A stretch of 64,000 bases of DNA from the sequence record PP886230; one strand, written 5' to 3'. Origin of the DNA: Escherichia phage vB_EcoM_E9.1. Shown here in pieces: positions 9,227 through 60,244 of the stretch. Below the pieces are notes generated by a model, which saw only the letters and a program-made list of their open reading frames with translations, was not told the origin of the DNA and searched no databases. The translations under genes and the position numbers were made by a program. How positions within the stretch are numbered: position 1 is the stretch's first letter; each line of letters starts with the position of its first letter.

Positions 9227-9670
9227 ATGAGTTGGGTAAATGTTAATAGTATTGAACTTAACGAACAAGATATTTTTGCATTTGTAAATTTAACTAATAA
9301 CACAGTACTAAAAGGGCGTTTGTTCAGTGCTAGTGATGGGTACAAATGGATCTCTTTGATGGATGATAGTGGTGTGATTTATAATGTAATGCAATTACCC
9401 CAATGGGTATATAGTAACACTGCTGACGATGTTCTTACCGCAGTTATGCGTGAGTTTGAAAAACTCCCAGGTGGTGATATCAAAAACAAAGTTTTTAATG
9501 CAGAACGTAAAAATTATACAGCACAGCAGTTGGAATCCCTTGCCATTGCTGCTTATCAAGCTGCTATTAAGAAGCCAGAGTGCGTTATTCTTAAGTATGT
9601 ACCAGACTTAAAACTTACGTTGGAAGACATGGATGCATTCATTTTTACATCTGAACTTGATCAGTACTAA
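9227..9670 (+). CDS. hypothetical protein
   Basis: internal ATG (MSWVNVN) of track ORF 9197-9670. Confidence 0.45.
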   Translation: MSWVNVNSIELNEQDIFAFVNLTNNTVLKGRLFSASDGYKWISLMDDSGVIYNVMQLPQWVYSNTADDVLTAVMREFEKLPGGDIKNKVFNAERKNYTAQQLESLAIAAYQAAIKKPECVILKYVPDLKLTLEDMDAFIFTSELDQY

Positions 9671-9677
9671 TTTAACT

Positions 9678-9733
9678 TTGGGACAACCATTCTTATTATG
9701 ATATAATGTTTTATGTCATTCGATATAAATGAC
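9678..9733 (+). promoter_or_regulatory. promoter plus 5' hairpin
   Basis: TATAAT followed by gttttatGTCATTcgatataaAATGAC stem-loop. Confidence 0.4.
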
Positions 9734-28260: not shown

Positions 28261-29403
28261 TCAATAAACATCCCAAGGTAATGGGGTCTTCCTAAATCCA
28301 TACCTGGTTGTGCTCGCACCATCTCCAGCAATGTATCGACCGATGCCACATTGGTATAACTCTGTACTACTACATATAGCACCACCAATAGTACCACTAC
28401 CCCACTGAATTATATTAGAATATGTTATTGGTAAATCACTACATTTAGTATATACACCAACGGTAGCAGCACCACTAATACCACCAAACATGCTTCGGTT
28501 AGCACCAGTGTAATATATACCATCTGGACTCATAAATGCAGAGGTGTACGTTGTACTACAATCCACTGGACTTCTTATAGTATTAAGATCGCCAGGGTAT
28601 GTTCTAGCAGCATATACGTAAACATTACCATCAGTAGTAATACCATTACCCAACTGACCACTGTTCTGACCACCACACGTAACTAACGATGCAGAACCAG
28701 AAACAATTGCAGTAGCATTATACGAAGTACCCATTGCAATAGAAGCACCAGACAATAGTTTTGGTGTAACGATAGCTGTTGTATTACCCTGGCCTAATTC
28801 ACCATTTGTGTTTCGTCCCCATGCGTATATAGAAGTCGTATCCAATCGACATAGTACTGAACCATAACTAAACGTATATCGCATGTCATTTACAGCAGAA
28901 GGCAAATTAACCTTAGTTGCAACACTAATAACACCACCAGTAACACCACTGTTTGCGTTCATGTTACGACCATATGCATATAAAGAACCATCTGAAGTTT
29001 TAATATGCATCATACCATCTGTGCAATATAATGCATCGATGCTATCCACCGCAACCGGACCCATACTGGCAGTTATATCGGTCCATCCAAGAGTAGTAGT
29101 ACTAGAAATTAAGTTATTTCCTGCGTAAAGGATTCTATTATTATTAGTAACTACCACTGTATATCTAGCAGTAACTCCAATTAATCGAACATCAGTATAT
29201 ATCTTAGACCACGCACCTAGTGAATTGGTATTTGCATCCAAAAAGCCTAACTGCCCATCTGTATTGTATCCAATACCCCATGCATCACCTGCACTGTCCA
29301 ATAACACTTCATGTGAAAAGCCAATCTTAAAATCTTTTATTGTAGGAACTACCGGAACTGGTGCAATATTCCCGTACTTAACCATTCTTCCAAAAGGTAA
29401 CAT
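28261..29403 (-). CDS. leader-tagged RCC1-like beta-propeller protein
   Basis: leader MLPFGRMVKYGNIAP; motifs GYNTDGQLGF, GRNTNGELGQG, GGQNSGQLGNG; start trimmed from track ORF. Confidence 0.75.
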   Translation of the reverse strand: MLPFGRMVKYGNIAPVPVVPTIKDFKIGFSHEVLLDSAGDAWGIGYNTDGQLGFLDANTNSLGAWSKIYTDVRLIGVTARYTVVVTNNNRILYAGNNLISSTTTLGWTDITASMGPVAVDSIDALYCTDGMMHIKTSDGSLYAYGRNMNANSGVTGGVISVATKVNLPSAVNDMRYTFSYGSVLCRLDTTSIYAWGRNTNGELGQGNTTAIVTPKLLSGASIAMGTSYNATAIVSGSASLVTCGGQNSGQLGNGITTDGNVYVYAARTYPGDLNTIRSPVDCSTTYTSAFMSPDGIYYTGANRSMFGGISGAATVGVYTKCSDLPITYSNIIQWGSGTIGGAICSSTELYQCGIGRYIAGDGASTTRYGFRKTPLPWDVY

Positions 29404-29474
29404 AATTCCCTCCTTATTCATTATACTATATTTAATACAAATAAGAAAGCCAGTATCAAGTACTGGCCTATATT
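29404..29474 (-). promoter_or_regulatory. cassette spacer: hairpin, -10 TATAAT, RBS
   Basis: same conserved spacer. Confidence 0.55.
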
Positions 29475-30212
29475 TTAGACTGAATTGTTAGGATAATATC
29501 TCCCACGTCCCCATATTATTCGCACAGCACCACCACCAGCAGCCGTATAAGAAAAATTATCCCATATACTACCACCACCACCATACATCTTACCAGCACC
29601 ACCACTACCAGCACCACCATTATATGAACCATCGTATCTACCGCCAATACCATTAGCACCTTGAACAATGATACCAGTACCACCACCCGTACCAATGAAC
29701 GAGGTATTATAGAATGCACCACCACCACCGCCGCCGCCAGCACCATTTTCACCAGTGATTGCATCTCCGTTACCACCTTTACCAGTGTAGCCACCAGCAC
29801 CACCACCAATGACTGCACCACCACTTACACCAGCGTTGCCCCCATTACCACCACCATCATTAATAGCGTTAGCAGCTTTCCCACCTAGTCCACCAACCCT
29901 ATATTCACCAGTGAAGCTAACACATAGTTTTTCAGTTCCACGATATAAACCGTTTTCAACTGCTGTAGTAGTGTTGGGATGTGTAAGAGAAACACTTAAG
30001 TACTCACCACCAGAAACCGGAATATTATTACGCCACGATAAGCCGCCACCAGCACCACGTTGACCACCCGGCGAAATAACACATACTGATATTTCGGTAA
30101 CGCCAGCAGGAACTGTAAATTGTGTTGTTCCTATTGTCGTGATTAATTGTTCACCATGTGGCTTATATTCAATTTTATTCCCGTACTTAACCATTCTTCC
30201 AAAAGGTAACAT
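29475..30212 (-). CDS. leader-tagged glycine-rich protein
   Basis: same leader MLPFGRMVKYGN fused to Gly-rich body (GGGNGGNAGVSGG...). Confidence 0.65.
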   Translation of the reverse strand: MLPFGRMVKYGNKIEYKPHGEQLITTIGTTQFTVPAGVTEISVCVISPGGQRGAGGGLSWRNNIPVSGGEYLSVSLTHPNTTTAVENGLYRGTEKLCVSFTGEYRVGGLGGKAANAINDGGGNGGNAGVSGGAVIGGGAGGYTGKGGNGDAITGENGAGGGGGGGAFYNTSFIGTGGGTGIIVQGANGIGGRYDGSYNGGAGSGGAGKMYGGGGSIWDNFSYTAAGGGAVRIIWGRGRYYPNNSV

Positions 30213-30283
30213 ACTTCCTCCTTTATTCATTATACTATATTTAATACAAATAAGAAAGCCAGTACAAAGTACTGGCTAAATTA
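30213..30283 (-). promoter_or_regulatory. cassette spacer: hairpin, -10 TATAAT, RBS
   Basis: same conserved spacer. Confidence 0.55.
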
Positions 30284-31474
30284 TTACAATTGTCTAGGTG
30301 TATCCAGAACATATCTATTTGTACTAGGACCACCATCATCATACGTTCCGGTTGAATATATATTTTTCATATCAGCAGTTAGAAAAGTACGATACGAACC
30401 GCGATATATTTTTATTTTATCATACATAGAATATGATATTTCTGCTGGCATTGGACATATAGTAAATCTACCAATAGTAACATTAGAACCAACACCCAAC
30501 GAACCAGCATAACTACTCGCATTTAAACCAGTTGCATATACACCAGTACTCGTAACTAGTATACTAGATTGTGTTGGGTATCCTGTATGAATTGAATACA
30601 AAGTTCCAGTTGGTAATGTCGTACTATTGCTCCCTAATACAGCAATTGCCGAACTGGTTGTGGTATTGTTACCCCATGCACCATTACTCGCTAAACCACC
30701 AACTAGAAACTGACGTGCACCAGTACTTGGATTCTCAACCAAAGCACTGACTGCACCACTTGAGCATCCAGTGTATTGTAACGTTTTTGTGTATGTTGTA
30801 CTTGGTTTATATAAAGTATATTCATTAAATGGTGTCCATGTGGTACTGGTACTTATACCTGACGTACCACCACCAATATATAAATTATTTTGTGTATCAA
30901 AAAACATTACACAGTTATTTGTTGACAGTATTTGTGCAATATCAACATTAGGCGTGACAGCTTTTACAAATGATCCATCTGTTATTTGTTGAGTACTACC
31001 AGTACCATCAGCGAATTGTCTAGCCCCACTCCAACCAGTACTCCATATTGTATTATTATCCATTAATACCGTAAACCACGTAGTACCTCCATACATCTGT
31101 TTAATTGAAGTACTTGAACTTTGCGTGTACAAATTTTCAATATATTGGTTATAACTTAAAAACGTAGTAGTACTAGTTGGTAAACCAACATGATCACCAT
31201 ATCCACAATAAAAATAATTTGAGTCATTATCTTTTACTAATAAAGTTCCTTGTGTAACCCAGCAATCGTTAACGTTTTCTCTAATTAATGTCCATGATTT
31301 TAATGCAGTGTTGTTTCCCCTACCAAATTTCCCAAAACTATTATTCCCACGTGCATATAGTTGACCATCCGTATACAGAACAACAACATCTAAATCAGTT
31401 GGGATTATTTTCTTAATTTGAAGTGGTACTGGGGCAATATTCCCATAATTCATCATTCTTGCAAAAGGTAACAT
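30284..31474 (-). CDS. leader-tagged RCC1-like beta-propeller protein
   Basis: leader MLPFARMMNYGNIAP; own spacer with hairpin and promoter. Confidence 0.7.
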   Translation of the reverse strand: MLPFARMMNYGNIAPVPLQIKKIIPTDLDVVVLYTDGQLYARGNNSFGKFGRGNNTALKSWTLIRENVNDCWVTQGTLLVKDNDSNYFYCGYGDHVGLPTSTTTFLSYNQYIENLYTQSSSTSIKQMYGGTTWFTVLMDNNTIWSTGWSGARQFADGTGSTQQITDGSFVKAVTPNVDIAQILSTNNCVMFFDTQNNLYIGGGTSGISTSTTWTPFNEYTLYKPSTTYTKTLQYTGCSSGAVSALVENPSTGARQFLVGGLASNGAWGNNTTTSSAIAVLGSNSTTLPTGTLYSIHTGYPTQSSILVTSTGVYATGLNASSYAGSLGVGSNVTIGRFTICPMPAEISYSMYDKIKIYRGSYRTFLTADMKNIYSTGTYDDGGPSTNRYVLDTPRQL

Positions 31475-31545
31475 AAATTCCTCCTTTATTCATTATACTA
31501 TATTTAATACAAATAAGAAAGCCAGTACAGTGTACTGGCATTAAA
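31475..31545 (-). promoter_or_regulatory. cassette spacer: hairpin, -10 TATAAT, RBS
   Basis: same conserved spacer. Confidence 0.55.
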
Positions 31546-32694
31546 TCATTGTATAAATGACATATCAACTTCTGTATAACTAAGAATGTTTTGTCCAGCA
31601 ATTCCCCCCATTACTACCATAGCATACCCACAATAATATAATTTCTCAGTGTCCGTAAGTATAAGTGAACCAGATGGAGTGCGTACCAAATTACACGAAC
31701 TATTAAACGAAGTATACGAAGGAGTATATGAGTACTGATTAATATTATTACCAACACCTAATTGACCAAATCCATTCGACCCAGATGCGTATAGAACTTC
31801 ATCACCTTTAGCTATATGTGATGCCATGTTACTAACACACGTATATAGAGTATAAACTCCCGAACTCAATAATGTCGGAGTTTTGTATTGTATATCGGTG
31901 GATGAAGAAGTACCACCTGTGCCAAATTCGTTCCCGTATTGTGCACCGAACTGTTTACCACAAGCGTACAAATTATTATCCGATTTAATAAAAAATGTAC
32001 TTTGATAACTTACATCAAAATCTATAACATCCGAAGAAATCATCGTCACCCCAGTAATAGAAGTTTGATTACCTGTACCTAACTGATAGTAATAGTTAAA
32101 ACCACAACCCCATAAAGTATTATCTTCTTTTAGGTATATGTTACCAACTGCCTTTTTAACCGAAGTTATAGTATCTACCCTTTTGAATGTGTTAAAAGAA
32201 TTAATGTTTGTACCATCACCAAATGATGATAGGTTCGAGTTATTGTTAACTCCACAACAATACAACGTACCATCGTTTGTTATCAAATTCACCTTCATAT
32301 CATTAAAACTACTCATGTATTTTATATCAGAAACATTAATACCACCTGATGTTATCCACGTAGTACAGTCCGTCCACAAAGTTTTTGTATCAGTTACACC
32401 AGTGAATGCCTTCGTGTTACCCGTGATAAAAACTTTTCCAGTACCTTTCTCTTCATACAATTGACAACTACTACTGTTATCTTCCAATAGAACTCGTTTA
32501 ACATTCTCTGCACAAAGAATAAATTTACTCGATGCTACACCTGTTCCAGTACCCCAATTCGTCGCAGAAGATGCATACAACTTATTAGTATAAGTATCAT
32601 GGAGATACATAGAATCACTTGAATATATTTTAAAACGCCTATCCTTACCAGGGGCAATATTCCCATAATTCATCATTCTTGCAAAAGGTAACAT
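31546..32694 (-). CDS. leader-tagged RCC1-like beta-propeller protein
   Basis: leader MLPFARMMNYGNIAP; GSNGFGQLGVGNN motif. Confidence 0.7.
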   Translation of the reverse strand: MLPFARMMNYGNIAPGKDRRFKIYSSDSMYLHDTYTNKLYASSATNWGTGTGVASSKFILCAENVKRVLLEDNSSSCQLYEEKGTGKVFITGNTKAFTGVTDTKTLWTDCTTWITSGGINVSDIKYMSSFNDMKVNLITNDGTLYCCGVNNNSNLSSFGDGTNINSFNTFKRVDTITSVKKAVGNIYLKEDNTLWGCGFNYYYQLGTGNQTSITGVTMISSDVIDFDVSYQSTFFIKSDNNLYACGKQFGAQYGNEFGTGGTSSSTDIQYKTPTLLSSGVYTLYTCVSNMASHIAKGDEVLYASGSNGFGQLGVGNNINQYSYTPSYTSFNSSCNLVRTPSGSLILTDTEKLYYCGYAMVVMGGIAGQNILSYTEVDMSFIQ

Positions 32695-32765
32695 ATTTCC
32701 CTCCTTTATTCATTATACTATATTTAATACAAATAAGAAAGCCAGTACAGTGTACTGGCATTATA
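32695..32765 (-). promoter_or_regulatory. cassette spacer: hairpin, -10 TATAAT, RBS
   Basis: same conserved spacer. Confidence 0.55.
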
Positions 32766-33905
32766 TTATTTCCACGGTAGAAGTGAATCAGGAACCCTTG
32801 TTGGTACAGTAGTTGAAGACATTCCAGTAAGATTGGGTACACCACATGTGTATAAATTATTATATTCGTCAACTAACATCGTATAAGAATAGCTCTTACA
32901 AAAACTACTAAGATTACTACCTTCTAATGCAGTAAGATCCATTTCAGCGAATGATGTTATATACATATCAGTTGTACCAATACCACATTGACCATTTGAA
33001 TTAAGGCCACATGAAAATAACTTATTATTATTATTAATTATACAGGATGGTCCGGTAAGGTTTGTCCCAAGCTCACCCACCAACTCCACTTCTCCTTGGA
33101 ATGATAAATTTGGAATTAATGTACTCATTGGGGCTACTGACCTATTTCCTGTACCTGCTTGTCCATAGTCGTTAATAGATGCAACTTTAACATTACCATC
33201 ATTAAGAAATATATAAGAAGTTTCATTTGTATTGACTGCTTTAATTGCATTACTAATCGAAGTATCTTGTGTAAATGTGAGCAAGTTTTGTGTCGTCGTT
33301 CCTGATACAAACGTTCTACCTGCATACCAATATGAACCATCATTTAGTACTAATCCAGTACTATATATTGCACAACCAGCACTGATAACATTTTCTATTG
33401 TACTATAGGTGAATCGTGAAACGCTTGAAGTTGATCCATTCCCAAAAACACCACCAGTACCAGCACCACAGTAGAACCACTTTCCATTTTTTAAAAATAC
33501 ACGCATACACGAAGATATCACAACACTATCAATATCATCTGCACTGACACCGAAATCAGTAAAGTTCTGTGTTATATCAACCCAAACGCCGTTAGTGTTT
33601 GAAGATAGTATTGGAATAACAGTACGTCTACCAGTGTACCAAATAGTACCATCTTTCTTTATAGCAATTGTTCCTTGTACCCCACCCCAATATCGTGTAA
33701 CATTTGAGTTGACAAGAGTCCATTCAGTTGAAGAGTCCAATGAACCATTACCACTTTGTCCATATGCTGAAGAACCAAACCAATATAGATTGCCATTTGT
33801 GTGTAAATAAAATTTGGCATCAGCAGAACATTGTAACCTGTTTTTAGGTAGAATCAGTTCAGGTGCGATATTCCCGTACTTAACCATTCTTGCAAAAGGT
33901 AACAT
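32766..33905 (-). CDS. leader-tagged RCC1-like beta-propeller protein
   Basis: leader MLPFARMVKYGNIAP; GLNSNGQCGIG motif; start trimmed from track ORF 32766-34067. Confidence 0.7.
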   Translation of the reverse strand: MLPFARMVKYGNIAPELILPKNRLQCSADAKFYLHTNGNLYWFGSSAYGQSGNGSLDSSTEWTLVNSNVTRYWGGVQGTIAIKKDGTIWYTGRRTVIPILSSNTNGVWVDITQNFTDFGVSADDIDSVVISSCMRVFLKNGKWFYCGAGTGGVFGNGSTSSVSRFTYSTIENVISAGCAIYSTGLVLNDGSYWYAGRTFVSGTTTQNLLTFTQDTSISNAIKAVNTNETSYIFLNDGNVKVASINDYGQAGTGNRSVAPMSTLIPNLSFQGEVELVGELGTNLTGPSCIINNNNKLFSCGLNSNGQCGIGTTDMYITSFAEMDLTALEGSNLSSFCKSYSYTMLVDEYNNLYTCGVPNLTGMSSTTVPTRVPDSLLPWK

Positions 33906-33975
33906 ATTCCCTCCTTTATTTGTTATACTATATTTAATACAAATAAGAAAGCCAGTACAGTGTACTGGCATTATG
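33906..33975 (-). promoter_or_regulatory. cassette spacer: hairpin, -10 TATAAT, RBS
   Basis: same conserved spacer. Confidence 0.55.
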
Positions 33976-35085
33976 TTATTTTGGTAAATCAATTTTAGTA
34001 AAGACTGCAACATCCTCGATTGCACCTGGAATGGCGTAATACGATCCAGTACTATACACATCTCCATTTTTGGTTAATATCGATGTCAAACCATCACTAA
34101 AAAGAACATCCCTAATCTCACTAACTTCAACGGGTAATTGTAAATTGGTAGCACTATATATAGCACCAGTTTGAGAATTGTTTAATCCCAAACCACGGTT
34201 CGCCCCAACACCCTTCTGATATGTACTAGTAATTACCATTTGTGTAGCAGTATTTAAGGCAGGTGAATTCGTCATAAACAATGGAGAACTATTAGGCAAA
34301 GTACTTACAGGAACTGCACGGAATGTAGTCGTACCTGAACTAAGAAAGTTTGGAGTTTGACCACATACGAAATATGATGTACCATTATAGTAATTTAATG
34401 CATTACCACCAATGGCTGCATCGATTACACCAGAACTACGCAATCCCCAAGTGTTAATTTGTGTTTGGTTCCCCGTACCATGCTGCCCACTACTATTCCA
34501 TCCAGAACTATATAGCTTATTATCTAATGTAAGATACATACTATCATTCGCATTGGTCATTACTTTACGAACGTTCGTAGCACATTGAGTTAATGTGTAA
34601 ATTGATGAGGAACCAATACCCAAAGAACCACGATATCCATTATCTCCTGCACCATAGAGTACTGAATTAGTGCTAAGTACAAATATTAAACCATTTGTAC
34701 ATACAATATTAGCAATTTCACTTACTGGTATAGCATTGGTAAACCAATTAGTTCTTTCAACTAATACAGTACTGTAAGAAGTAGTTGTAGAAGATGAGAA
34801 CCAGTACGTTTGACCTGATGTCCATATCGTATTATCATTTTTAATAATAACAAGTGTACGATCACCCACGAAAAAATTAGAAACATCTGCACTTACTAAT
34901 GTCCACGAAGACACCGTGTTGGTATTACCATTTCCAGATTCACCACCTTGATTTCTACCTATGTAATATAAATCATGTGAATCAGTCAATAAGAATTGGC
35001 CTTGGGTAGAAGCACCAACTTTAATTATTTTTTTAGGACCAGGGACAATATTTCCATACCTAATCATTCTTCCAAAAGGTAACAT
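33976..35085 (-). CDS. leader-tagged RCC1-like beta-propeller protein
   Basis: leader MLPFGRMIRYGNIVP; GWNSSGQHGTGNQT motif; start trimmed. Confidence 0.7.
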   Translation of the reverse strand: MLPFGRMIRYGNIVPGPKKIIKVGASTQGQFLLTDSHDLYYIGRNQGGESGNGNTNTVSSWTLVSADVSNFFVGDRTLVIIKNDNTIWTSGQTYWFSSSTTTSYSTVLVERTNWFTNAIPVSEIANIVCTNGLIFVLSTNSVLYGAGDNGYRGSLGIGSSSIYTLTQCATNVRKVMTNANDSMYLTLDNKLYSSGWNSSGQHGTGNQTQINTWGLRSSGVIDAAIGGNALNYYNGTSYFVCGQTPNFLSSGTTTFRAVPVSTLPNSSPLFMTNSPALNTATQMVITSTYQKGVGANRGLGLNNSQTGAIYSATNLQLPVEVSEIRDVLFSDGLTSILTKNGDVYSTGSYYAIPGAIEDVAVFTKIDLPK

Positions 35086-35093
35086 ATTCCCTC

Positions 35094-36296
35094 CTATTGT
35101 TGCCATAACTGCGTTGGCATTAATGTTAGTGTAGTAATACTATAAGTGCCATCTGGCAATCTACCACCATTTCCATTCCAGCCACCACATGCATATAATT
35201 TATAATCTTTAGTAATTATTATGGTTCTGCTCCAATCTTTAGATGCCATAAGAACATTGTCATAACCACCACTTATTGCACTAAGATTAAAAATATTCCA
35301 AGTTCTAACTAATGTATTAGTTCCATTACCTTCTTGACCATATGAGTTAGCACCACTACTTCTAACATATGGTGCGTATTGTGCCATAGGTGCACCAATT
35401 GATGCATTTCCCATATTACTTGGACAAATAAAAGTACTGTACTTACTTACATCAACCGTGACCGATGTGTTCCTAATTGGTGTTAGCTGATTTACCGATG
35501 TAGTCGTACCATTACCAGCTTGTCCAGAACTGTTAGCCCCGCTATAATATACAGACCCACCAGTAGTAAACCACCAAGTAACATCGTATGTAGTACTAAT
35601 ATGTTCTACATTACTAATCACGAATTTGTTCAAATATACAACAGAACTACCACCACATCCACTTTCACCAAAGTTATCCTTACCACAAAACCATGCATCT
35701 TTATTTGATTTGATATAGTGCGTTCCTTGTAATGAACATGCCATATGTGTAACTTCACCCATATTAGTCATAACTGTGAGTGTAGGGATGGAATTTTTAT
35801 TCCCAGAGCCACATTCACCATTAGTATTTCTTCCACACGCAATTACTCTACCATCGGTTAATAATATTCTAGTACTTTCACCTATATATACACTCTTGAT
35901 CATATTAGCCATAACACCTATTTTATTAAATGCAACAGTAACATCAGTCCATGTTGTCAAATAACCATTAACAGGTGTTGCATCTCCATAATCAGAAAAT
36001 GCACCCACAGACCCAGTGTAGTATATTTTATTATCCAAATCAATCATCAATGAACCTTGAACACCAAGCCAAAAGGCTGCACAGTTCCTTGCAAGTACTG
36101 TAAATGACGAAACTGCTGCTGAATTCCCAAGACCAAATTGATAAAAGTTATTACTACCATAACCATATAAAGTATTAGTTGGGTTATGGAGATACATACA
36201 GTTTGTATAATGTTGTTGTAAAACATCTGAGAACTCTACAGGTTCTGGACCTGGTGCAATATTTGCGTACTTAACCATTCTTCCAAAAGGTAACAT
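35094..36296 (-). CDS. leader-tagged RCC1-like beta-propeller protein
   Basis: leader MLPFGRMVKYANIAP; GANSSGQAGNG motif; stop close to next start. Confidence 0.7.
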   Translation of the reverse strand: MLPFGRMVKYANIAPGPEPVEFSDVLQQHYTNCMYLHNPTNTLYGYGSNNFYQFGLGNSAAVSSFTVLARNCAAFWLGVQGSLMIDLDNKIYYTGSVGAFSDYGDATPVNGYLTTWTDVTVAFNKIGVMANMIKSVYIGESTRILLTDGRVIACGRNTNGECGSGNKNSIPTLTVMTNMGEVTHMACSLQGTHYIKSNKDAWFCGKDNFGESGCGGSSVVYLNKFVISNVEHISTTYDVTWWFTTGGSVYYSGANSSGQAGNGTTTSVNQLTPIRNTSVTVDVSKYSTFICPSNMGNASIGAPMAQYAPYVRSSGANSYGQEGNGTNTLVRTWNIFNLSAISGGYDNVLMASKDWSRTIIITKDYKLYACGGWNGNGGRLPDGTYSITTLTLMPTQLWQQ

Positions 36297-36367
36297 ATTT
36301 CCCTCCTTTATTCATTATACTATATTTAATACAAAAAGAAATGCCAGTATCAAGTACTGGCATAATA
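36297..36367 (-). promoter_or_regulatory. cassette spacer: hairpin, -10 TATAAT, RBS
   Basis: same conserved spacer. Confidence 0.55.
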
Positions 36368-37546
36368 TTATCGGTTAAATTTAAAATCTGTTATGTGTGT
36401 CCATGTATGATTTAATGGGGTACTCATTGGTGTAAAGCCAGCAGGGTCTGACAAAGCTGTACCACGTGCGTACATAAATTGATTGCCAGTACAATCCATT
36501 ATAGCATAAGAACGTGTTGCTGTGCCACATTTGAACCCAACTGCACTACTTGGGGTCGGTAATACTTCAAATGTAGGTGCATTTGAACTACCACCCCCAT
36601 CTTTTGTTCCAGCTATGTACAGAACTCCATTAGTATCAATGATTAAGTTAGTCCAATATGCTTGTTCTCGACCAGCATAAAAATATGTTAAATCACCGGG
36701 TACAAATGGTAACGTTCCTTTATATATTGTAGTATTAACATTCACTGGTGCACCAGCTACACCCCATGAACTCATATAGTTTCTCCCACTTGAGTAGAAT
36801 GTAGTTCCTTTACCGTAAAGTATTAATGTTGCTTGACTTGTTCGCATTGCATTATATTCAAACTCAGGATCATCAGTAGCGTCCTTAAAAATCTGTGTCC
36901 ATGTTGTTATATTACCAGTAGTCGTAACACCCATTTGATAATAATAATTATCACCAGTAGCATAGAATTCTTTAGGGCCAGTTTGTACAATTGCATTCCC
37001 ATTAGTTAACCAAAAATCTAATGTATTAGTCTTGATCTTGGTTGGTGTGTAATTCGCCACGGTATTTCCTTTTCCGAAATAACCATTAGCGTTATTTCCA
37101 TGACCCCATAAATCACCATTAGTTGTGCGTAGGAATAATGTACCAGTATTGAATCCAACTTTTTCTATAGTACTTATGTCAATACCAACAGTCGTGTACT
37201 TCGTTGTAAAATCTTGAAAAGTACTCCAATAATTAGATGAACCATTAAACATGGTTTGTCTACCAGTGTACTTCACTTTATTATCGTTAGTGATAAGTAA
37301 TGTCCCCCACACTGACGCGAACATTAACTTAACATTTTCCATAACAAAGTATGGCTTACCGTATGCTGACGCGGTAGTGTTTAAACCTAATAGTTGTCCA
37401 TCATTACTACAACCCCATACTTCGCCGTTATCCAAAAGCATCAACATAGTAGGTTTGCCGGATGATACATCCAAAAAGAAATCTTTTGGTGTTGGTACGC
37501 CCGGTGCTTCATTTCCATAATTCAACATTCTTCCAAAAGGTAACAT
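36368..37546 (-). CDS. leader-tagged RCC1-like beta-propeller protein
   Basis: leader MLPFGRMLNYGNEAP. Confidence 0.7.
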   Translation of the reverse strand: MLPFGRMLNYGNEAPGVPTPKDFFLDVSSGKPTMLMLLDNGEVWGCSNDGQLLGLNTTASAYGKPYFVMENVKLMFASVWGTLLITNDNKVKYTGRQTMFNGSSNYWSTFQDFTTKYTTVGIDISTIEKVGFNTGTLFLRTTNGDLWGHGNNANGYFGKGNTVANYTPTKIKTNTLDFWLTNGNAIVQTGPKEFYATGDNYYYQMGVTTTGNITTWTQIFKDATDDPEFEYNAMRTSQATLILYGKGTTFYSSGRNYMSSWGVAGAPVNVNTTIYKGTLPFVPGDLTYFYAGREQAYWTNLIIDTNGVLYIAGTKDGGGSSNAPTFEVLPTPSSAVGFKCGTATRSYAIMDCTGNQFMYARGTALSDPAGFTPMSTPLNHTWTHITDFKFNR

Positions 37547-37615
37547 AGTTCCTCCTTTATCATTATACTATATTTAATACAAATAAGAAAGCCAGTATCA
37601 AGTACTGGCATCGTA
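37547..37615 (-). promoter_or_regulatory. cassette spacer: hairpin, -10 TATAAT, RBS
   Basis: same conserved spacer. Confidence 0.55.
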
Positions 37616-38725
37616 TTACTTGGGTAATGGAATTGTGGTCCATCTATTTGCGGCAACGTCACCTGGTACATATGTAGGACTACCACTTACAGCAATAGTT
37701 TCATTACCATCATATACAACACTGAAGTTTGTGCACGTATACAACGCTGCGGCATCTGGATTGTAATTTTCAAGTGTTAGTGTATTGGTGAACAAATTCA
37801 ATGCAGTAGTTGAGCCGTTTTTACCATATGCACCTGTAGTATATATCTTTCCTTCTGTTGTTGAGTACATATTAACATATGACCCAGATGATGATTTAGC
37901 AATTTTATCTATCTTGCTATCTATTGTTTTAGAGTTAAATTGAAATGGATATACCTGTACGTTAGTATCTAAACCATTTCCCAGTTCCCCATTTAACTGC
38001 CACCCTGTGTGGTACATTCCCGCATTTGTATATGCAAGCGTACTATACGCATTACCACCCATTATTTTAGTGCCAGATAATTTTAAACCAAACGATGTCC
38101 ACTTACCAGTTTCATTTCCTATGGAACCATAAGCACTTGTACCACACGCACGAAGCTCGCCATTTGACGTTAGAAGCACTGTATTATTAACGTTACCAAA
38201 TATATCAATAACCTGATTAGTGCCATTATTCAGTACTGAAGTAAAAGTACTCTGTGAGTAAGTACTACCTGAACCAACAGAACCATTTGTGTTCATACCT
38301 CTTCCATATACAATTTTACCATCAGCACTAACATAGTGCATTGAATCAAAACCAATGGATATCATTTTAATATCAGATATATCTGGAAATGAAGAAGTTA
38401 CATCTACTCCACCTAGTGGAATTGTATTATTTCCTAAACCTAATGAGACATTAGTTCCGTGCATTATAAATTTATCTTCTTTAAAATATAAAATATTATA
38501 TCCACCAGCCCATGCATTATTAACGCCATTTGTAATCAGTACCCATTTATTTTGTGTAGTAGTTCCAGTAATATTTAACTGTTGATAGTTATTGATTCCA
38601 CAACCATATAGCGATCCATCACCATATAGTACATATAAATTATCATATCCTGCAATAACTTTCTTTATTTTTTTGGGTACAGGTGCTACATTCCCATACT
38701 TTAACATTCTTCCAAAAGGTAACAT
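37616..38725 (-). CDS. leader-tagged RCC1-like beta-propeller protein (first cassette)
   Basis: leader MLPFGRMLKYGNVAP; divergent promoter region upstream. Confidence 0.7.
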   Translation of the reverse strand: MLPFGRMLKYGNVAPVPKKIKKVIAGYDNLYVLYGDGSLYGCGINNYQQLNITGTTTQNKWVLITNGVNNAWAGGYNILYFKEDKFIMHGTNVSLGLGNNTIPLGGVDVTSSFPDISDIKMISIGFDSMHYVSADGKIVYGRGMNTNGSVGSGSTYSQSTFTSVLNNGTNQVIDIFGNVNNTVLLTSNGELRACGTSAYGSIGNETGKWTSFGLKLSGTKIMGGNAYSTLAYTNAGMYHTGWQLNGELGNGLDTNVQVYPFQFNSKTIDSKIDKIAKSSSGSYVNMYSTTEGKIYTTGAYGKNGSTTALNLFTNTLTLENYNPDAAALYTCTNFSVVYDGNETIAVSGSPTYVPGDVAANRWTTIPLPK

Positions 38726-42078: not shown

Positions 42079-42261
42079 ATGCACAAAGAATACTACACAC
42101 AATTTCTCCCCAGCATTTTTGAACACTACGCCAGATACAAAGTCCCTATGGATAACGATTTGGCAGTACTGGGATTCAATAACTGCATAGAACGAAGTAT
42201 AGAAAATAGTAGTAGTTATGACCAGCTATATAACACTATCCTACTTATATTCAGGTACTAA
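42079..42261 (+). CDS. small-paralog family member
   Basis: MHKEYYTQFL...NNCIERSIEN...LLIFRY. Confidence 0.6.
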   Translation: MHKEYYTQFLPSIFEHYARYKVPMDNDLAVLGFNNCIERSIENSSSYDQLYNTILLIFRY

Positions 42262-42262
42262 T

Positions 42263-42451
42263 ATGCATAAAGAATACTACACAAAATATTTCCCAATGTA
42301 CCTCAGTACTAATCTATTAGATAAACCTCGCGGTATCAATGCACAAAACGATAAAGTGTACTTTACTATGTGCACTAAAGCATGTATACTAGATTTTGAC
42401 AGCTATCATCGAGTACTGTATCATACCCTGTACCTAGCTTTCGTATTCTAA
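42263..42451 (+). CDS. small-paralog family member
   Basis: internal ATG (MHKEYYTKYF). Confidence 0.55.
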   Translation: MHKEYYTKYFPMYLSTNLLDKPRGINAQNDKVYFTMCTKACILDFDSYHRVLYHTLYLAFVF

Positions 42452-42460
42452 AAGAACAAT

Positions 42461-42646
42461 ATGCATAAAGAATTCTACTTAAGCCATCTCGATCTAAACT
42501 CCCAAATGCTTATACCACTAATCCCAATAGATATCAAGGATAAGAAAAATACCGAACAATTCATTTACCATACACAGTGTGCGATCACCCCAAATTACAT
42601 TCCATATGAATTGTACTACATTATCGCCCTAATATATAGGTACTAA
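42461..42646 (+). CDS. small-paralog family member
   Basis: MHKEFYLSHL...IALIYRY. Confidence 0.6.
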   Translation: MHKEFYLSHLDLNSQMLIPLIPIDIKDKKNTEQFIYHTQCAITPNYIPYELYYIIALIYRY

Positions 42647-42647
42647 T

Positions 42648-42833
42648 ATGCATAGAGAATACTACACACAATTTGTTAAAGGGAACTACAAATGTGCCGT
42701 ACCCAGAACCCCTTTAAATTCTCATGACCCAAGTACTATATTCTTGTTTAATGACGCAATACGTACAGTACTCAATACTAAAGATGAAGATGTGCAGTAC
42801 GTATTCTTACTATTACTTATATACAGACACTAA
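42648..42833 (+). CDS. small-paralog family member
   Basis: MHREYYTQFV...LLLLIYRH. Confidence 0.6.
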   Translation: MHREYYTQFVKGNYKCAVPRTPLNSHDPSTIFLFNDAIRTVLNTKDEDVQYVFLLLLIYRH

Positions 42834-42838
42834 CTAAT

Positions 42839-43048
42839 ATGAATAAAGAACATAAAGAATTCTACTCCAAATACATAAGCCCCTCAGAACAAATGTTTCT
42901 AAGGACTACTCCACCTTTAAGTACTAATACATTTTTCGGCAGAGTATGCTACAATAATTGTATTCAAATGACTTTAAACGCAAATGAAGATGGTAACAGT
43001 ACTAACCTGTACTCCGGCATCATAGGTATACTATTCCTGTATGAATAA
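42839..43048 (+). CDS. small-paralog family member
   Basis: MNKEHKEFYSKY...FGRVCYNNCIQ; close paralog of 39258. Confidence 0.6.
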   Translation: MNKEHKEFYSKYISPSEQMFLRTTPPLSTNTFFGRVCYNNCIQMTLNANEDGNSTNLYSGIIGILFLYE

Positions 43049-43229
43049 TTACAAAGACTTCTATTTGAATACACTACCTACTGTACTTTCTCTAAGTGCT
43101 CAATGTAAAATCCCCCTGGATAATGCTTACGCCAGATATAGCTATTCCATAACTGTTAATCGATGTATAGAGAATCATTGCAGTACTAACCAGTACTATA
43201 ACATAATCCTACTTATATTCAGGTACTAA
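43041..43229 (+). CDS. small-paralog family member
   Basis: MNNYKDFYLNTL...VNRCIENHC...LLIFRY. Confidence 0.6.
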   Translation: MNNYKDFYLNTLPTVLSLSAQCKIPLDNAYARYSYSITVNRCIENHCSTNQYYNIILLIFRY

Positions 43230-43230
43230 T

Positions 43231-43413
43231 ATGAATAAAGAACATAAAGAATTCTATATACGAAAACTAACATTCGTCCCCGTAAGAATATATAAAGAAT
43301 GCGACCCAAGATTATACCTATGGCACTTCAATGAGTGCATAAAAGATTCTATATACCATAAGAACTATAAAGAACAATTGTGCTCAGTACTAACACTAGT
43401 ACTATCATATTAA
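43231..43413 (+). CDS. small-paralog family member
   Basis: MNKEHKEFYIRKL...FNECIKDSI. Confidence 0.6.
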   Translation: MNKEHKEFYIRKLTFVPVRIYKECDPRLYLWHFNECIKDSIYHKNYKEQLCSVLTLVLSY

Positions 43414-43428
43414 TTAATAGAGAATACT

Positions 43429-43620
43429 ATGTATAAAAACTTCTATATAAGTAAACTAAAAGAAAATGAACAAGTATGGATTAGATCTATAATTCCACTG
43501 GCATTTAATAGATATGCATTTAACAGATGTACCGAGATTGCTATAGACCCTTATAATATTAAAGAGAATGTACAGTATAATCAGTACTACTATATCTTAA
43601 TGCTTATATATAGAAAGTAA
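43429..43620 (+). CDS. small-paralog family member (last)
   Basis: MYKNFYISKL...FNRCTEIAID...LMLIYRK. Confidence 0.6.
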   Translation: MYKNFYISKLKENEQVWIRSIIPLAFNRYAFNRCTEIAIDPYNIKENVQYNQYYYILMLIYRK

Positions 43621-43639
43621 TTAAACACATAGAGACAGG

Positions 43640-43715
43640 GGAAGCTCCTAGTGAACAACCTTTATGTACAGGCGAATTGTTAAAATTCAGCCTGGACAAA
43701 TGCGATCACTAGGAT
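43640..43715 (+). other. long imperfect inverted repeat (possible RNA structure or terminator)
   Basis: ggggaagctcctagtga ... tcactaggattctcccc enclosing an inner caggc/gcctg stem. Confidence 0.4.
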
Positions 43716-44265
43716 TCTCCCCAGGCTAAACCCCGTAATCATAGGTAGTCATAAGTAATCATATATAAACATTTATATGAGCACCGTAGAATCACAGAAT
43801 GATTATATATGATTCAGTACTGATTAGTATAGACAAGATTGCTCAAGAATGCACGGAAATGTGTGTGAATGATTCAGTACTGATATGCCACTAAGTAGGC
43901 AGAGGAAGTCTGCCGTACTTTGTAGTTTCCAAGCTCCTTTTCCATTTTGTAAATTACATCAAATGTAATCAAAAGTAATCACGCAATGATTAGTACTGAA
44001 TTATTACTTTCACCTTAATTACAATTACCCTTTTACCCTTCGGGGTAAAATTCAATTACCCCTTGAGGCTCCAGCAAAAAGTTGGTTAGTACTCCATCCT
44101 AAATCTCGATCCTAAAAATTTTGGAGTACCTATGAAATAAAAGTTGGATCTTCGAAAGTTGAAATTTACGTTGGGACGTTTATGATTTGTGGGATATAAT
44201 GATGTTTGTAGACGGGTAGTTCTCAAGAATATCAGTACTGAATGGTGAAAGAAAGTTATTGACAT

Positions 44266-44296
44266 TATGATTCAGTACTGTATAATGTTTTACATA
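44266..44296 (+). promoter_or_regulatory. sigma70-type promoter with no downstream ORF
   Basis: TTGACA - spacer containing cagtactg - TATAAT, then gttttacat; no ORF over 60 aa for >1 kb. Confidence 0.45.
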
Positions 44297-44599
44297 GAGA
44301 GATGAGTTGCCGCAAACAATTCATTCACTCTACCTCCTGTCGTGAGACAGTACAGAAAGATAGTTCCTCCAATGGGTGGTACATCTTTTTGAACCTCATA
44401 TGAAAATTGTAATAACAGTACTGATATTAACAGAATGGTGTCAGTACTGATTTTAATCTAAAGCATTATGCCACCAGCACAAGCTGGTGGATTCCCTCTA
44501 ACAGTATTCAGTACTACATGATAGTCTTCATCCTCCTAGGGTAACATAGTGAGGGCTATGATGGCAGTACTGAATACTCCCTTTCAAAAGATAGATCTA

Positions 44600-44800
44600 T
44601 GGTATAGTACTGACGGATTTTGGGCGTAGTTACCCTGGATGGATTTTGGACGTAGATATGTCTAGCCCTCCAGAAGTCTGGAAGTAAAGATGGCTATCCA
44701 TCTAGACGGCTAAACGGCTAGATTTCTGGATGGCTAGACGTTTGGACGGCTAAACGGCTAGATGGGTACACGTCTGGAAGTATAGACGGCTAAATCAAAA
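44600..44800. repeat. iteron-like direct repeats
   Basis: gacggctaaacggctagat twice (~44705, ~44745), partial third copy, ctggaagta twice, attttggRcgta repeats. Confidence 0.55.
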
Positions 44801-45410
44801 TTTTATTTTGTTTTTCCAATAGTTCCCCTACCGCGTGGGGATAGTTTCCCCGCAGTATCTGAAGTTAGATTTTTCTGAATCTGGAATCATTATCTTATAA
44901 ACTGGGGGCAATGTCAACGGCCTGGCCGGATATTTTTAAAAATTTTTTCAGTACTGAATTTTGGGCGTAACTATGCACCCGATGGGCTTGAGTCTTTCTC
45001 GACTTGATGGAACTATTATACAGTACTGAAAAAATAAAGCAATACCCTGGAAGCAAAAAAGTTTTAATTAATTTGCTTGCTATCCTGGGCCGGACTATGG
45101 TACTATATTTCAGTACTGAGAAAGTGCGTTTACCTGCTAGGGTGCGGGAGTCTATCCTTTTTTTATATCTTGAATTTTGGACGGATCTTCCCACCCCCTG
45201 GGGTATCCGCTTTCTCGCGTCTATGTAGTAATTATACGCTTTTTCAGGATCAAGTCAATACCTAAAAACAAAATAATTGAAAATAATTTAACGCGTTTAA
45301 ACGGCCCGTAACGCCCTGGATTGTTGGGAGTGGTGCAAATGTATAGCTTAGGTGTATTAATGCGTTAGAATGCGTCTGAGGCCGTTTTATGGGGTGTAGT
45401 AGTGATTTGG

Positions 45411-45503
45411 TTGATTCAGTACTGAATAATAGTACTCCTATATAGAAAGATAGTTCCCCTGGATTGATTCAGTACTGAATAATAGTACTCCTATATAGAA
45501 AGA
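45411..45503. repeat. 40-bp perfect direct repeat x2
   Basis: ttgattcagtactgaataatagtactcctatatagaaaga at ~45411 and ~45464. Confidence 0.7.
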
Positions 45504-45534
45504 AAACTATTTTAAAAGTATTTGTAGAAAGTAC

Positions 45535-45593
45535 TTGCACCGTACTGATAAAAGCGTATAATGTTTTACATCGAGAGCGGGAACACTTCCCGC
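45535..45593 (+). promoter_or_regulatory. PeSL-like cassette: promoter plus 5' stem-loop
   Basis: TTGCAC - 16 nt - TATAAT gttttacatcgaga GCGGGAAcacTTCCCGC. Confidence 0.6.
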
Positions 45594-45617
45594 TACACTT
45601 TAAGAGAGATTAATACG

Positions 45618-45980
45618 ATGGCAACTCAAATCACCAAAATTATTGCTAACCTGGTTAACTTCCGCGACGAGATGAAAGATCTTCCGGCGGCGACGGTTAA
45701 AACTCACATTGACGCATACCGCGAACTGATTAAAATGCTGCCGCTTAAGCGTGAACAATACGCCGCTACCGTGATGCTTGATGCGATGATCCATAAGATG
45801 ATCGCCAGTGATTTGACGATGGTTTATCAGTATATGGGCGAAAATTTCGCGGTGTGTAGTAAGCCAGTACCAGGGATGGCAACAACTGAGGAATTGCACG
45901 GCTTAAACTTAAAACAAGATGCATGGGATAATATGCCTCGTTTCCTGGTATGGGCTGACAGTGGCAAAATTTACAAATAA
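45618..45980 (+). CDS. hypothetical protein (120 aa), GC-richer codon usage
   Basis: ATG after RBS taagagag; track ORF start is an ATG inside the -10 hexamer. Confidence 0.6.
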   Translation: MATQITKIIANLVNFRDEMKDLPAATVKTHIDAYRELIKMLPLKREQYAATVMLDAMIHKMIASDLTMVYQYMGENFAVCSKPVPGMATTEELHGLNLKQDAWDNMPRFLVWADSGKIYK

Positions 45981-45994
45981 GTTTAATAAAGTAC

Positions 45995-46053
45995 TTGCAA
46001 ACTATGTTTAATGGCGTATAATGTTTTACATCAGGTGGGGAATAGTTCCCCAC
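45995..46053 (+). promoter_or_regulatory. PeSL-like cassette
   Basis: TTGCAA .. TATAAT .. GTGGGGAAtagTTCCCCAC. Confidence 0.6.
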
Positions 46054-55236: not shown

Positions 55237-55494
55237 ATGGCTGTAGGATTCGCGAAAGATGGGGCCGAGCAAGACGAGATTAACGCAGTGATTCAGGCCG
55301 CCGTTAACCACGCTAGAAAGCAAATTAACGCACAAATAGAATCACTGATACATTGCCTCGACTGCGGCGATATAATCCCTGAGAAACGACGCCAGGCCGT
55401 TAAGGGATGTAAGTACTGCATAACTTGCCAGGAGGATCATGATAGTACTTTTAAACGTCCCCCGCGTAATTGTTGGCATAGATCTATGAGATAA
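55237..55494 (+). CDS. TraR/DksA-family C4 zinc-finger protein
   Basis: CLDCGDIIPEKRRQAV..CKYCITCQE matches the TraR C-x2-C-x17-C-x2-C finger and basic PE.RR motif. Confidence 0.7.
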   Translation: MAVGFAKDGAEQDEINAVIQAAVNHARKQINAQIESLIHCLDCGDIIPEKRRQAVKGCKYCITCQEDHDSTFKRPPRNCWHRSMR

Positions 55495-55557: not shown

Positions 55558-55914
55558 ATGGGAATACAACATATCACGCGTACTACTGACAATGGCGAGA
55601 TCACTGGCTATCAAGTACAGGGCAAAGTAGCACAATTGCAGTACTGGTTTGTGAAACGTGGAATCATTGCACCGGATCTTGATTATGACCGTGTAGCGTT
55701 TATTGATTCTCTTTATGTTGATCCTGATAGTCGGGGCAATGGTGAAGGTAACGAATTAATGAATGCCTTTATTGATGCCGCCGATGATTCAGATTGTATC
55801 ATTTTAGAATGCGATACGGGAGAAGATAACGCCTTTAATCTTAAAGAATGGTACGAAGGTTTCGGATTCGAGGTACTGATCGATAGTGAATATCCTATCA
55901 TGATTTTATCATAG
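55558..55914 (+). CDS. GNAT-like acetyltransferase domain protein
   Basis: LYVDPDSRGNGEGNELM resembles GNAT motif A (R-G-x-G-x-G); C-terminal YEGFGF. Confidence 0.5.
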   Translation: MGIQHITRTTDNGEITGYQVQGKVAQLQYWFVKRGIIAPDLDYDRVAFIDSLYVDPDSRGNGEGNELMNAFIDAADDSDCIILECDTGEDNAFNLKEWYEGFGFEVLIDSEYPIMILS

Positions 55915-59077: not shown

Positions 59078-59332
59078 ATGATTAAGGTTCAACTATATAA
59101 AGATAACATCTTACGGGTACACTATAAAGCACCTCAGAGAATCATCACAAAGGCCGTACAGCTTGCTAATGAGTTTATTAATGGTAACCTATTACCAAGG
59201 AAGTTAAGCAACGGGAAACTGCGTGTAATCGATGTGGACACTAACAACAGAATAGTAATAGAGAACACAGGAAAAATAAACCTATATGAACACCAACAAT
59301 ATAATAAGAAAATAAAACTAATATCACGTTGA
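59078..59332 (+). CDS. hypothetical protein (84 aa)
   Basis: ORF after terminator. Confidence 0.5.
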   Translation: MIKVQLYKDNILRVHYKAPQRIITKAVQLANEFINGNLLPRKLSNGKLRVIDVDTNNRIVIENTGKINLYEHQQYNKKIKLISR

Positions 59333-59385: not shown

Positions 59386-59628
59386 ATGATTACTTTAGAA
59401 AAACGTATCAAAGAAACTACATCGCTGGTGGAACTGTTAACAGTACTCAAATGTAAAACAACACCATTCAGCACGCCGGACTTTATTAATATGGTTGATG
59501 TTAATGGTCGCTATCGTATCACGGTCGAACAAGGAGCGGCGAAAGTATTCAGTACTAAAAACACGAAGGAAGTGATCCACGCCGTTAATGTTAAAAAAGT
59601 AGTTGCCATTGATAGTAAAGTACTGTAA
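59386..59628 (+). CDS. hypothetical protein
   Basis: internal ATG (MITLEKRIKE) after RBS. Confidence 0.5.
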   Translation: MITLEKRIKETTSLVELLTVLKCKTTPFSTPDFINMVDVNGRYRITVEQGAAKVFSTKNTKEVIHAVNVKKVVAIDSKVL

Positions 59629-59659
59629 GATAGTTACATTAACTCAAGGAGAACATGCA

Positions 59660-60244
59660 ATGCGTAATTATACTAAATTCATCCGTACACTGTCAGAAAT
59701 GGAAACCAACAAAGAGATCCTTTCAGCTTGTCGGTTAGCTGGCCTGGAGATCATCGGTGCTGGTTCTTCCCGTATAGTATTCGCTTTAAATGATCGGTTA
59801 GTGATTAAGGTCGCGAATTGTGATGCGGGTGTAGAACAAAATGAAACTGAATGTAAGGTATGGAATTTTTTAGACTATGACCGCCCTCAGTTGAAACAGT
59901 ACTTTGCAAAGGTGCATATGCATTTATGCGATCCTGATAATATGTTTATCGTTATGGATCGGTTGAGTACTGCAAGCAAAGGCAGCGTAAAGCACGTTAA
60001 CGCGTGCAACGAATTAAAGTATAATATTAAACGTAATGCCATTGAACGCCAGCACCGCTTTGCTGATGCACTACAACACGTTGATGATACATTATCAACA
60101 CTAACGATAAGAGATATCAGAAAACAGAATATCGGCCAGGATCGTAATGGACTTATTAAAGTACTTGATTACGGTTTAACCCGCAATATCTGGAATCAGT
60201 ACTATAAAAAGCGTGATGTAGAAGCAAGTAAGGTAACACGATAA
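59660..60244 (+). CDS. mini protein-kinase-like protein
   Basis: IGAGSSRIVF (Gly loop), VIKVA (Lys), RDIRKQN (catalytic loop D-x4-N), VLDYG (DFG-like); internal ATG with RBS aaggag. Confidence 0.6.
   Translation: MRNYTKFIRTLSEMETNKEILSACRLAGLEIIGAGSSRIVFALNDRLVIKVANCDAGVEQNETECKVWNFLDYDRPQLKQYFAKVHMHLCDPDNMFIVMDRLSTASKGSVKHVNACNELKYNIKRNAIERQHRFADALQHVDDTLSTLTIRDIRKQNIGQDRNGLIKVLDYGLTRNIWNQYYKKRDVEASKVTR

Follow-up and report, generated by a model that had tools for sequence, protein, structure and literature searches.

The methionine repressor MetJ binds operators built from met boxes, 8-bp units with the consensus AGACGTCT, at which one dimer occupies each box, binding is cooperative and S-adenosylmethionine (SAM) acts as the co-repressor. 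The hallmark of these operators is that the 8-bp repeats are contiguous, with a CTAG at each junction, and they are usually cited as having two to five boxes. Ribbon-helix-helix proteins are known to act on tandem short repeats, such as the heptads of the omega repressor and the 8-bp-spaced boxes of TP228 bound by ParG, and in both systems a protein filament forms on the DNA, with one dimer at each short repeat. Host proteins can take part in the processing of phage ends, as does IHF at lambda cosB, where it assists the phage machine. In T7, arrays of short direct repeats (SRL and SRR) flank the terminal repeat at a distance of no more than a few hundred bp, in an entry region rich in promoters.

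The non-coding 'Repeat Region 3' of phage T5 extends across the end of the left terminal repeat and includes the injection-stop signal, which was defined genetically (Davison, bioRxiv 10.1101/866236; AY587007). A similar arrangement is found in the 64,000-nucleotide stretch of Escherichia phage vB_EcoM_E9.1 (PP886230) analysed here (the window), whose leader (43621-45560) is likewise a non-coding, repeat-dense stretch across a terminal-repeat edge, at 43894. Repeat Region 3 carries sites for host DNA-binding proteins, and the same is predicted for the leader. T5 has paired DnaA boxes and GTGCAAATCCGAC (DRD) repeats, neither of which is present in the leader of this jumbo phage, whereas the leader contains an array of met boxes and T5 itself has no such array, nor anything meaningful by the MetJ matrix described below.

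The array shares with the E. coli met operators (metF, metB/metJ) the contiguous 8-bp units, the CTAG junction and a pattern of degeneracy that agrees at seven of the eight box positions. It differs from them in size, as the two operators scanned have four boxes each and the array has 13-18, with up to 28-36 in other phages, and also in its position near the end of a phage genome, in the frequent G at box position 6, in overlapping no promoter-like site in a promoter scan of the leader and in adjoining no methionine gene, the neighbouring ORFs being of no assigned function. Because of these last two properties we regard it as a met-box array and not as a canonical met operator. The T7 repeats are irregularly spaced heptamers with no known host ligand, unlike the contiguous 8-bp units of the window. 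The omega and ParG units differ in sequence from those of the phage array, and no phage-encoded ribbon-helix-helix protein was found here.

An array of contiguous 8-bp units

A first-pass annotation of this DNA had described, in a locally GC-richer patch, a 19-mer occurring twice about 40 bp apart, with a third partial copy, interleaved with two other repeated words. The GC content is indeed 0.465 in 44600-44799, compared with 0.31-0.40 in the flanks. Exact copies of the 19-mer, GACGGCTAAACGGCTAGAT, begin at 44705 and 44745, 40 bp apart, and the partial copy begins at 44785, 40 bp beyond the second, while no copy (0) is expected in shuffled sequence even when three mismatches are allowed. The word given as ctggaagta recurs as CTGGAAGTA at 44678 and 44774, a distance of 96 bp or 12 x 8, and the word given as attttggRcgta recurs as ATTTTGGRCG at 44617, 44643, 44958 and 45174, with no other copy in 64 kb (0.23 expected). 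All of these words belong together, as they are facets of a single array of 18-19 contiguous 8-bp units (Table 1).

Self-comparison placed the repeats far beyond chance. Lag-8 identity across the array is 0.52, compared with 0.25 +/- 0.036 in 10,000 shuffles (shuffle maximum 0.40), which is the strongest lag-8 signal anywhere in the window, and self-identity peaks at all multiples of 8, the 40-bp spacing being a super-period of five units. In the register of the first-pass annotation, the units read TAGACGGC, TAAACGGC, TGGATGGC and onward, and in blocks of eight their order is TGGACGTA ... TAGACGGC TAAACGGC TAGATTTC TGGATGGC TAGACGTT TGGACGGC TAAACGGC ... TAGACGGC TAAATCAA. The consensus over the 18-19 units of 44647-44798 is T|AGAYGKCT.

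Table 1 Positions of the array, the leader and associated features in the window.
Feature	Position	Strand	Description
Repeat array	44647-44798	.	Gap-free; 19 eight-bp units in perfect register, no indel; from periodicity and per-box scores
Met-box register of the array	44648-44791		18 boxes, AGAYGKCT
Array core	44688-44791	.	13 contiguous boxes, each above the published met-box threshold; 94.3 bits in total
ORF-free leader	43621-45560	.	1.9 kb; straddles the terminal-repeat edge and contains the array
Physical left end of virion DNA	43894	+	Start of the ~21-kb direct terminal repeat, by match to the starts of relatives
Hairpin GGCAGAGGAAGTCTGCC	43898-43914		Just inside the physical left end
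Perfect sigma70-type promoter	44259-44286	+	TTGACA-16-TATAAT; directed toward the array, which lies ~350 nt downstream; conserved in vB_Ec-M-J
Two ATTTTGGRCGTAG words	44617-44655	+	Directly upstream of the array; further copies at 44958-44967 and 45174-45183
AT-rich tract and hairpin CCCCTACCGCGTGGGG	44792-44850	+	Directly after the array, between it and the leftward promoter
Near-consensus promoter	44889-44917	-	TTGACA-17-GATAAT; leftward into the array
DksA/TraR zinc finger, GNAT acetyltransferase, ParE-like toxin and weak kinase-like ORF	Among 55237-55494, 55558-55914, 59078-59332, 59603-60244	+	ORFs of the terminal repeat

The array lies near the end of the virion DNA

The stretch of ~2 kb around the array is 94-97% identical to the Asteriusvirus jumbo coliphages (PBECO4, 121Q, G17, phAPEC6, fEgEco12 and others), whose genomes are ~350 kb in size. 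The records of fEgEco12 and vB_Ec-M-J both start with AGTAGGCAGAGG, which corresponds to position 43894 of the window. For fEgEco12, PhageTerm defined the termini and restriction digests confirmed them, with a repeat of 20,993 bp (PMC13070987), and the vB_Ec-M-J record annotates 1-21,525 as direct terminal repeats. It follows from the shared start that window 1-43893 is the right end of the unique region and that the terminal repeat extends from 43894 onward. The array lies at bases 754-905 of the virion DNA, inside the ~21-kb repeat, and a sensitive search with it gave a match at ~670-985 in all records that start at a determined physical end, namely vB_Ec-M-J, BF17, CRJP21, ELP-22 and fEgEco12.

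No credible ORF was found in the leader, and the corresponding part of the G17 and phAPEC6 records has no annotated CDS. A structured RNA was rejected as an explanation, as no Rfam family was found in 43000-46000; there is also no tRNA in the window. Counted from the start of the leftward promoter, as inferred from its -10 hexamer, the array lies at about +91 to +235, and the block around this promoter (about 44865-44925) has stayed invariant even in EJP2, a divergent phage whose flanking sequence has changed. The AT-rich tract and its hairpin, which is moderately stable (fold z-scores of -2.1 and -2.8), are conserved across the genus and can be recognised in CBB. Counterparts of the ATTTTGGRCGTAG words were found in CBB as well, and ATTTTGG-type words also occur near the repeat edge in T5-like phages.

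The first-pass annotation had called the repeats iteron-like and suggested a cluster of binding sites for initiator or packaging proteins. Like the iterons of plasmid and phage origins, they are clustered direct repeats beside an AT-rich tract, here of ~30 bp (44792-44820), and the cumulative GC skew of the window has its minimum near 43-44 kb, so a replication origin, at which an initiator would bind iterons beside an unwinding tract, was considered. We rejected it and find it scarcely credible. The array departs from origin iterons in unit size and spacing, its units being contiguous and 8 bp long rather than helically phased 17-22-mers, there are no DnaA boxes in the leader (43600-45600), and no initiator, Rep, helicase, primase or terminase gene was found near the array among 39 ORFs at or inside the terminal repeat. 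The skew change is ambiguous, as it coincides with the junction between unique region and terminal repeat and with a change of gene block. Furthermore, the origins of T5 map to the middle of its genome and not to the repeat (10.1101/866236).

The array unit resembles the met box

MetJ was chosen as a match post hoc, once the 8-bp period was known. The scan used the symmetrised weight matrix and the site rule of Augustus & Spicer 2011 (PMC3228920), by which every box must reach at least one quarter of the consensus bits, the total must reach at least the consensus bits and at least two boxes must be adjacent. Just two sites pass in the 64 kb, the array and a marginal site of two boxes (12.9 bits) at 18875. 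In addition to the core of the array (Table 1), two boxes at 44656 and 44672 are above threshold and in register with it. As controls, the rule recovered both E. coli operators, metJ/metB with 4 boxes and 31.2 bits and metF with 4 boxes and 24.9 bits, and the top score among 40 Markov resamples of the window was 20.5 bits.

The resemblance extends to the sequence of a natural operator, as window 44744-44765, GGACGGCTAAACGGCTAGATGG, is identical to the E. coli metF operator, GGACGTCTAAACGGATAGATGT, at 19/22 positions, and the 19-mer described above is the core of that operator with two changes. The base preferences of 168 phage boxes agree with those of natural met boxes at 7/8 positions, and secondary preferences are also shared (A>G at position 1, G>A at 2, A>C at 3 and C>T at 4). 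Position 6 counts against MetJ, given that G is about as frequent as T in the arrays of the jumbo, Vibrio and Aeromonas phages, versus 87% T and 10% G in natural boxes; it is canonical in the array of Providencia phage PR1 and in one metagenomic array of 36 boxes. A degenerate three-box pattern, when searched against bacterial genomes, gave matches of which those listed were diverse, mostly GC-rich and non-gammaproteobacterial, and since many unrelated bacterial genomes were matched, this pattern alone is not specific.

Judged by an independent, published matrix, the array unit therefore looks like the met box of the host repressor MetJ, and the likely ligand is a host regulator rather than a phage initiator. 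The idea of a binding-site cluster thus holds in so far as the array resembles one, with units that match a host operator and not the iterons of an initiator.

A MetJ able to bind the array would probably have to come from the host, as no MetJ homologue was found by tblastn in 50,697 phage records; the sole matches were bacterial sequences filed as phage records, and a phage-encoded MetJ was discarded as a candidate. MetJ is confined to the Enterobacterales, Pasteurellales, Vibrionales, Aeromonadales and Alteromonadales (PMC3228920), and metJ is present in E. coli K-12. The reported hosts of array-bearing phages fall in MetJ-bearing orders, with the exception of XbC2, which has an intact array and yet was isolated on Xanthomonas, where MetJ is absent, and which counts against the MetJ reading. 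The GC content of XbC2 is 37.5%, versus about 65% for Xanthomonas.

Occurrence in other phages

Weak BLAST matches with the array led to other Rak2-like jumbo phages and to T5-like siphoviruses, two unrelated phage families, and the same 8-bp unit is present in every array printed in register (Asteriusvirus, Mimasvirus, Eneladusvirus, Vibrio and Aeromonas phages). There are 24 units in Asteriusvirus EJP2, 15-16 in Mimasvirus CBB, GAP32 and XbC2, 12-15 in Eneladusvirus BF and fHe-Yen9-04, 17 in Vibrio phage Pontus, 10 in Vibrio phage pVp-1 and 29 in Aeromonas phage AhSzq-1. The MetJ rule gave 12 contiguous boxes in G17 (89 bits), 14 in PBECO4 (103 bits), 14 in vB_Ec-M-J (105 bits), 15 in fEgEco12 (109 bits), 15 in Pontus (112 bits), 28 in AhSzq-1 (221 bits) and nine, nearly canonical, in the T5-like PR1 (88.5 bits), as well as nine boxes in pVp-1.

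By the same rule the Asteriusvirus arrays have 11-15 boxes, and array length across phages ranges from 7 to 28 boxes, varying even among relatives. The Asteriusvirus arrays differ by gain or loss of whole 8-bp units, so that the register is kept. Copy number that shifts by whole units among close relatives is what replication slippage would produce in a neutral tandem repeat without function, and some metagenomic arrays are monotonous copies of a single unit. We nevertheless regard a neutral repeat as highly improbable, because unit consensus, register and position are kept across three jumbo-phage and four T5-like genera although their flanks can no longer be aligned, and because the units are degenerate and yet hold the met-box profile, which is unexpected for a young microsatellite.

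The position of the array relative to mapped genome ends is also conserved. The distance to the mapped repeat edge is about 650-800 bp in fEgEco12, vB_Ec-M-J, XbC2, CBB and PR1, and a comparable distance is seen in BF. In CBB, whose repeat was inferred from read depth, and in XbC2 (PhageTerm), the left end and the start of the array are 648-685 bp apart. A pattern scan of IMG/VR recovered more T5-like contigs, one of which was PR1. This phage has two copies of the array 108,076 bp apart, and the sequence from each to the contig end is identical in both, which indicates a terminal repeat of 10,461 bp; its array lies at 9620-9691, with 770 bp between the end of the array and the right edge of the repeat. 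For the T5-like phages, array position was taken from the annotated repeat of PR1 and from synteny with T5, and by this measure the array lies by the right repeat edge in T5-like phages and by the left one in jumbo phages.

In the T5-like phages of Providencia, Vibrio and Aeromonas, the array occupies the equivalent of Repeat Region 3, with the DnaA boxes on one side of it and the repeat edge on the other. In PR1, Pontus, pVp-1 and AhSzq-1 it is preceded by DnaA boxes and a LexA-like box, and GTGCAAATCCGAC-type (DRD) repeats follow it in Pontus and pVp-1; beside the PR1 and AhSzq-1 arrays, a search gave no canonical DRD repeats. In the injection-stop region of T5 itself (9330-9349 and 9574-9633), 'palindrome D' matches the LexA box consensus at 19/20 positions and the DRC repeats match the Fur box consensus at 15/19. 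Taken with the DnaA boxes, and with the met boxes of T5 relatives, this suggests that the injection-stop region of T5 is a landing pad for several host regulators.

The metagenomic array of 36 boxes (7257-7544 of IMGVR_UViG_3300031658_004036) consists of near-perfect (AGATGTCY)n met boxes, scores 356 bits and lies between two terminator-like hairpins, 4.6 kb from a large-terminase gene that is most similar to that of Pseudoalteromonas phage KB12-38. It may represent a third phage lineage with a met-box array. For a GC-rich metagenomic contig with five boxes (L023), no relative was found in the phage collection.

A possible role at the genome end

The reading that we favour, and consider reasonably probable, is that the array is a landing pad for host MetJ-SAM that acts in cis at the genome end. 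We infer that MetJ binds the array and that this binding has an effect. Each 8-bp unit is a predicted site for one MetJ dimer with SAM, and 13-18 adjacent units would be coated cooperatively to form a continuous protein sheath of ~100-150 bp, making the array a putative tandem met-box 'super-operator' between the rightward and the conserved leftward sigma70 promoters of the leader. As no phage protein would be needed, the landing pad could be ready as soon as the DNA arrives in the cell, and a host protein would be the natural choice for a function required before any phage gene is expressed. Once occupied, the array may impose a SAM-dependent roadblock or gate on transcription of the leader, and might also gate end-proximal DNA transactions coupled to that transcription, such as stepwise genome entry and/or the processing of concatemer junctions. 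A roadblock would be expected rather than a classical promoter-occluding operator, because no promoter-like site lies inside the array. The context in T5-like phages points to control either of stepwise DNA entry or of transcription toward the DNA end. Nevertheless, given that the array is found by opposite repeat edges in the jumbo and the T5-like phages, we hold the specific gate model loosely.

An alternative possibility is that the array is recognised by a phage protein, either a small-terminase-like packaging factor or a ribbon-helix-helix protein, which polymerises on the 8-bp repeats and marks the terminal cut, the likeness to met boxes being coincidence or mimicry. The 650-800 bp to the mapped repeat edge are constant across genera and in T5-like phages, and such closeness to the terminal cut is expected of a pac/cos-type terminase site. 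The part of the first-pass annotation that named packaging proteins agrees with an array 754 bp from the mapped genome end, and a small terminase has not so far been recognised among these phages (PMC11273794), which leaves room for such a factor. Also in favour, the phage arrays share a G/T dimorphism at box position 6 that sets them apart from natural met boxes, and the metagenomic 36-box array has a large-terminase gene within a few kilobases. On the other hand, Rak2-like myoviruses and T5-like siphoviruses would need a protein in common, T5 has the same type of ends without an array, and the right-hand repeat edge of vB_Ec-M-J also has none. A length that varies between 7 and 28 boxes even among relatives is a poor fit to a fixed packaging geometry, and no ribbon-helix-helix or other DNA-binding family was found among the 39 ORFs tested at or inside the terminal repeat. 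On balance, we think it unlikely that a phage protein is the ligand.

If MetJ is the ligand, the array might also act in trans, as a decoy. Replicating phage DNA would soak up the small pool of MetJ, the host met regulon would be de-repressed and more methionine and SAM would become available, and these phages do encode SAM-dependent methyltransferases (PMC11273794). The phage arrays are far longer than the E. coli operators scanned or the few boxes usually cited, their variable length fits a function based on capacity, and their location within the terminal repeat provides two copies per virion genome. However, T5-type phages degrade host DNA within minutes, so that de-repression of host genes would be pointless for the T5-like carriers. 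Moreover, a decoy needs no fixed position, whereas the array is always found in the same non-coding slot, at most 0.8 kb from the repeat edge. For these two reasons action in cis is favoured, given binding, and a decoy appears very unlikely.

The cis-acting landing pad for MetJ-SAM would imply, as the distribution of the arrays suggests, that the phages that carry them recruit a metabolite-sensing repressor of the host at their DNA ends. A broader proposal, which we put forward as speculation and consider distinctly doubtful, is that in both Rak2-like jumbo myoviruses and T5-like siphoviruses the sites for host cofactor-sensing repressors at the repeat edge form a checkpoint for stepwise genome delivery, which would be the basis of the T5 injection-stop signal and would make delivery in jumbo phages a two-step process too. 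The sites concerned would be those for MetJ-SAM in the window, joined in T5-like phages by sites for DnaA, LexA and possibly Fur.

Met boxes are a textbook bacterial operator, and here arrays of 9-36 boxes are conserved beside genome termini in two phage families. Full-text literature searches returned no relevant report linking MetJ or met boxes with bacteriophages or terminal repeats, and the element is not described in the papers on fEgEco12, CBB, XbC2 and Sharanji or in the phAPEC6 literature. While the met-box unit is known, the long array at phage genome ends therefore appears to be unreported. If MetJ does bind, these phages would read or exploit the SAM/methionine state of the host within seconds of the start of infection, and would need no protein of their own to do so. 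Binding would also make the array a concrete candidate component of the machinery that acts in cis in the T5-type injection-stop region, and would offer a first way into the function of the terminal leader, which is unannotated in the Rak2-like jumbo phages.

Neighbouring genes and further repeats

The ORFs of the terminal repeat are small and all on the + strand, and those with recognisable products are given in Table 1. Their content is consistent with a role of the repeat in host takeover and resembles that of the T5 terminal repeat, which has host-takeover content. The 134-aa ORF upstream of the ParE-like toxin has no match and could be an antitoxin.

Several other repeats were observed in and around the leader. 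A 10-bp tandem repeat, GTAATCAAAA, is present at 43958-43981 (L004 61-100), 65 bp inside the genome end, and its copy number varies among relatives, vB_Ec-M-J having one copy more than the window and fEgEco12. The 8-bp palindrome CAGTACTG has 63 copies in 64 kb, compared with 0.86 expected, and is densest in 43600-45560; its AGTACT core has 291 copies in 64 kb. Copies of the palindrome are found in both coding and non-coding DNA, and also in the left end of CBB. Many lie in the spacers of perfect promoters, as TTGACA-N8/9-CAGTACTG-TATAAT (e.g. at 863, 15506, 44273, 56553 and 60706), and two are located just outside the physical end, at 43810 and 43870.

When window 43600-45600 was aligned with the PBECO4, SD-series and WPEC3 records, it matched in two pieces spanning 3.2-3.4 kb, which indicates that these phages carry ~1.2-1.4 kb of extra DNA, with small ORFs, within or just after the leader. 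Outside the terminal repeat, a run of + strand ORFs of 60-77 aa occupies 42079-43620, and the two that were scanned (43231-43413 and 43429-43620) match phrog_11711. This run has a negative GC skew despite its + strand coding, unlike the other + strand blocks, which produces the skew switch at the terminal-repeat edge. Further to the left, 25836-38725 contains about ten consecutive minus-strand ORFs of 369-433 aa, and their similar sizes suggest a family of tandem paralogues.
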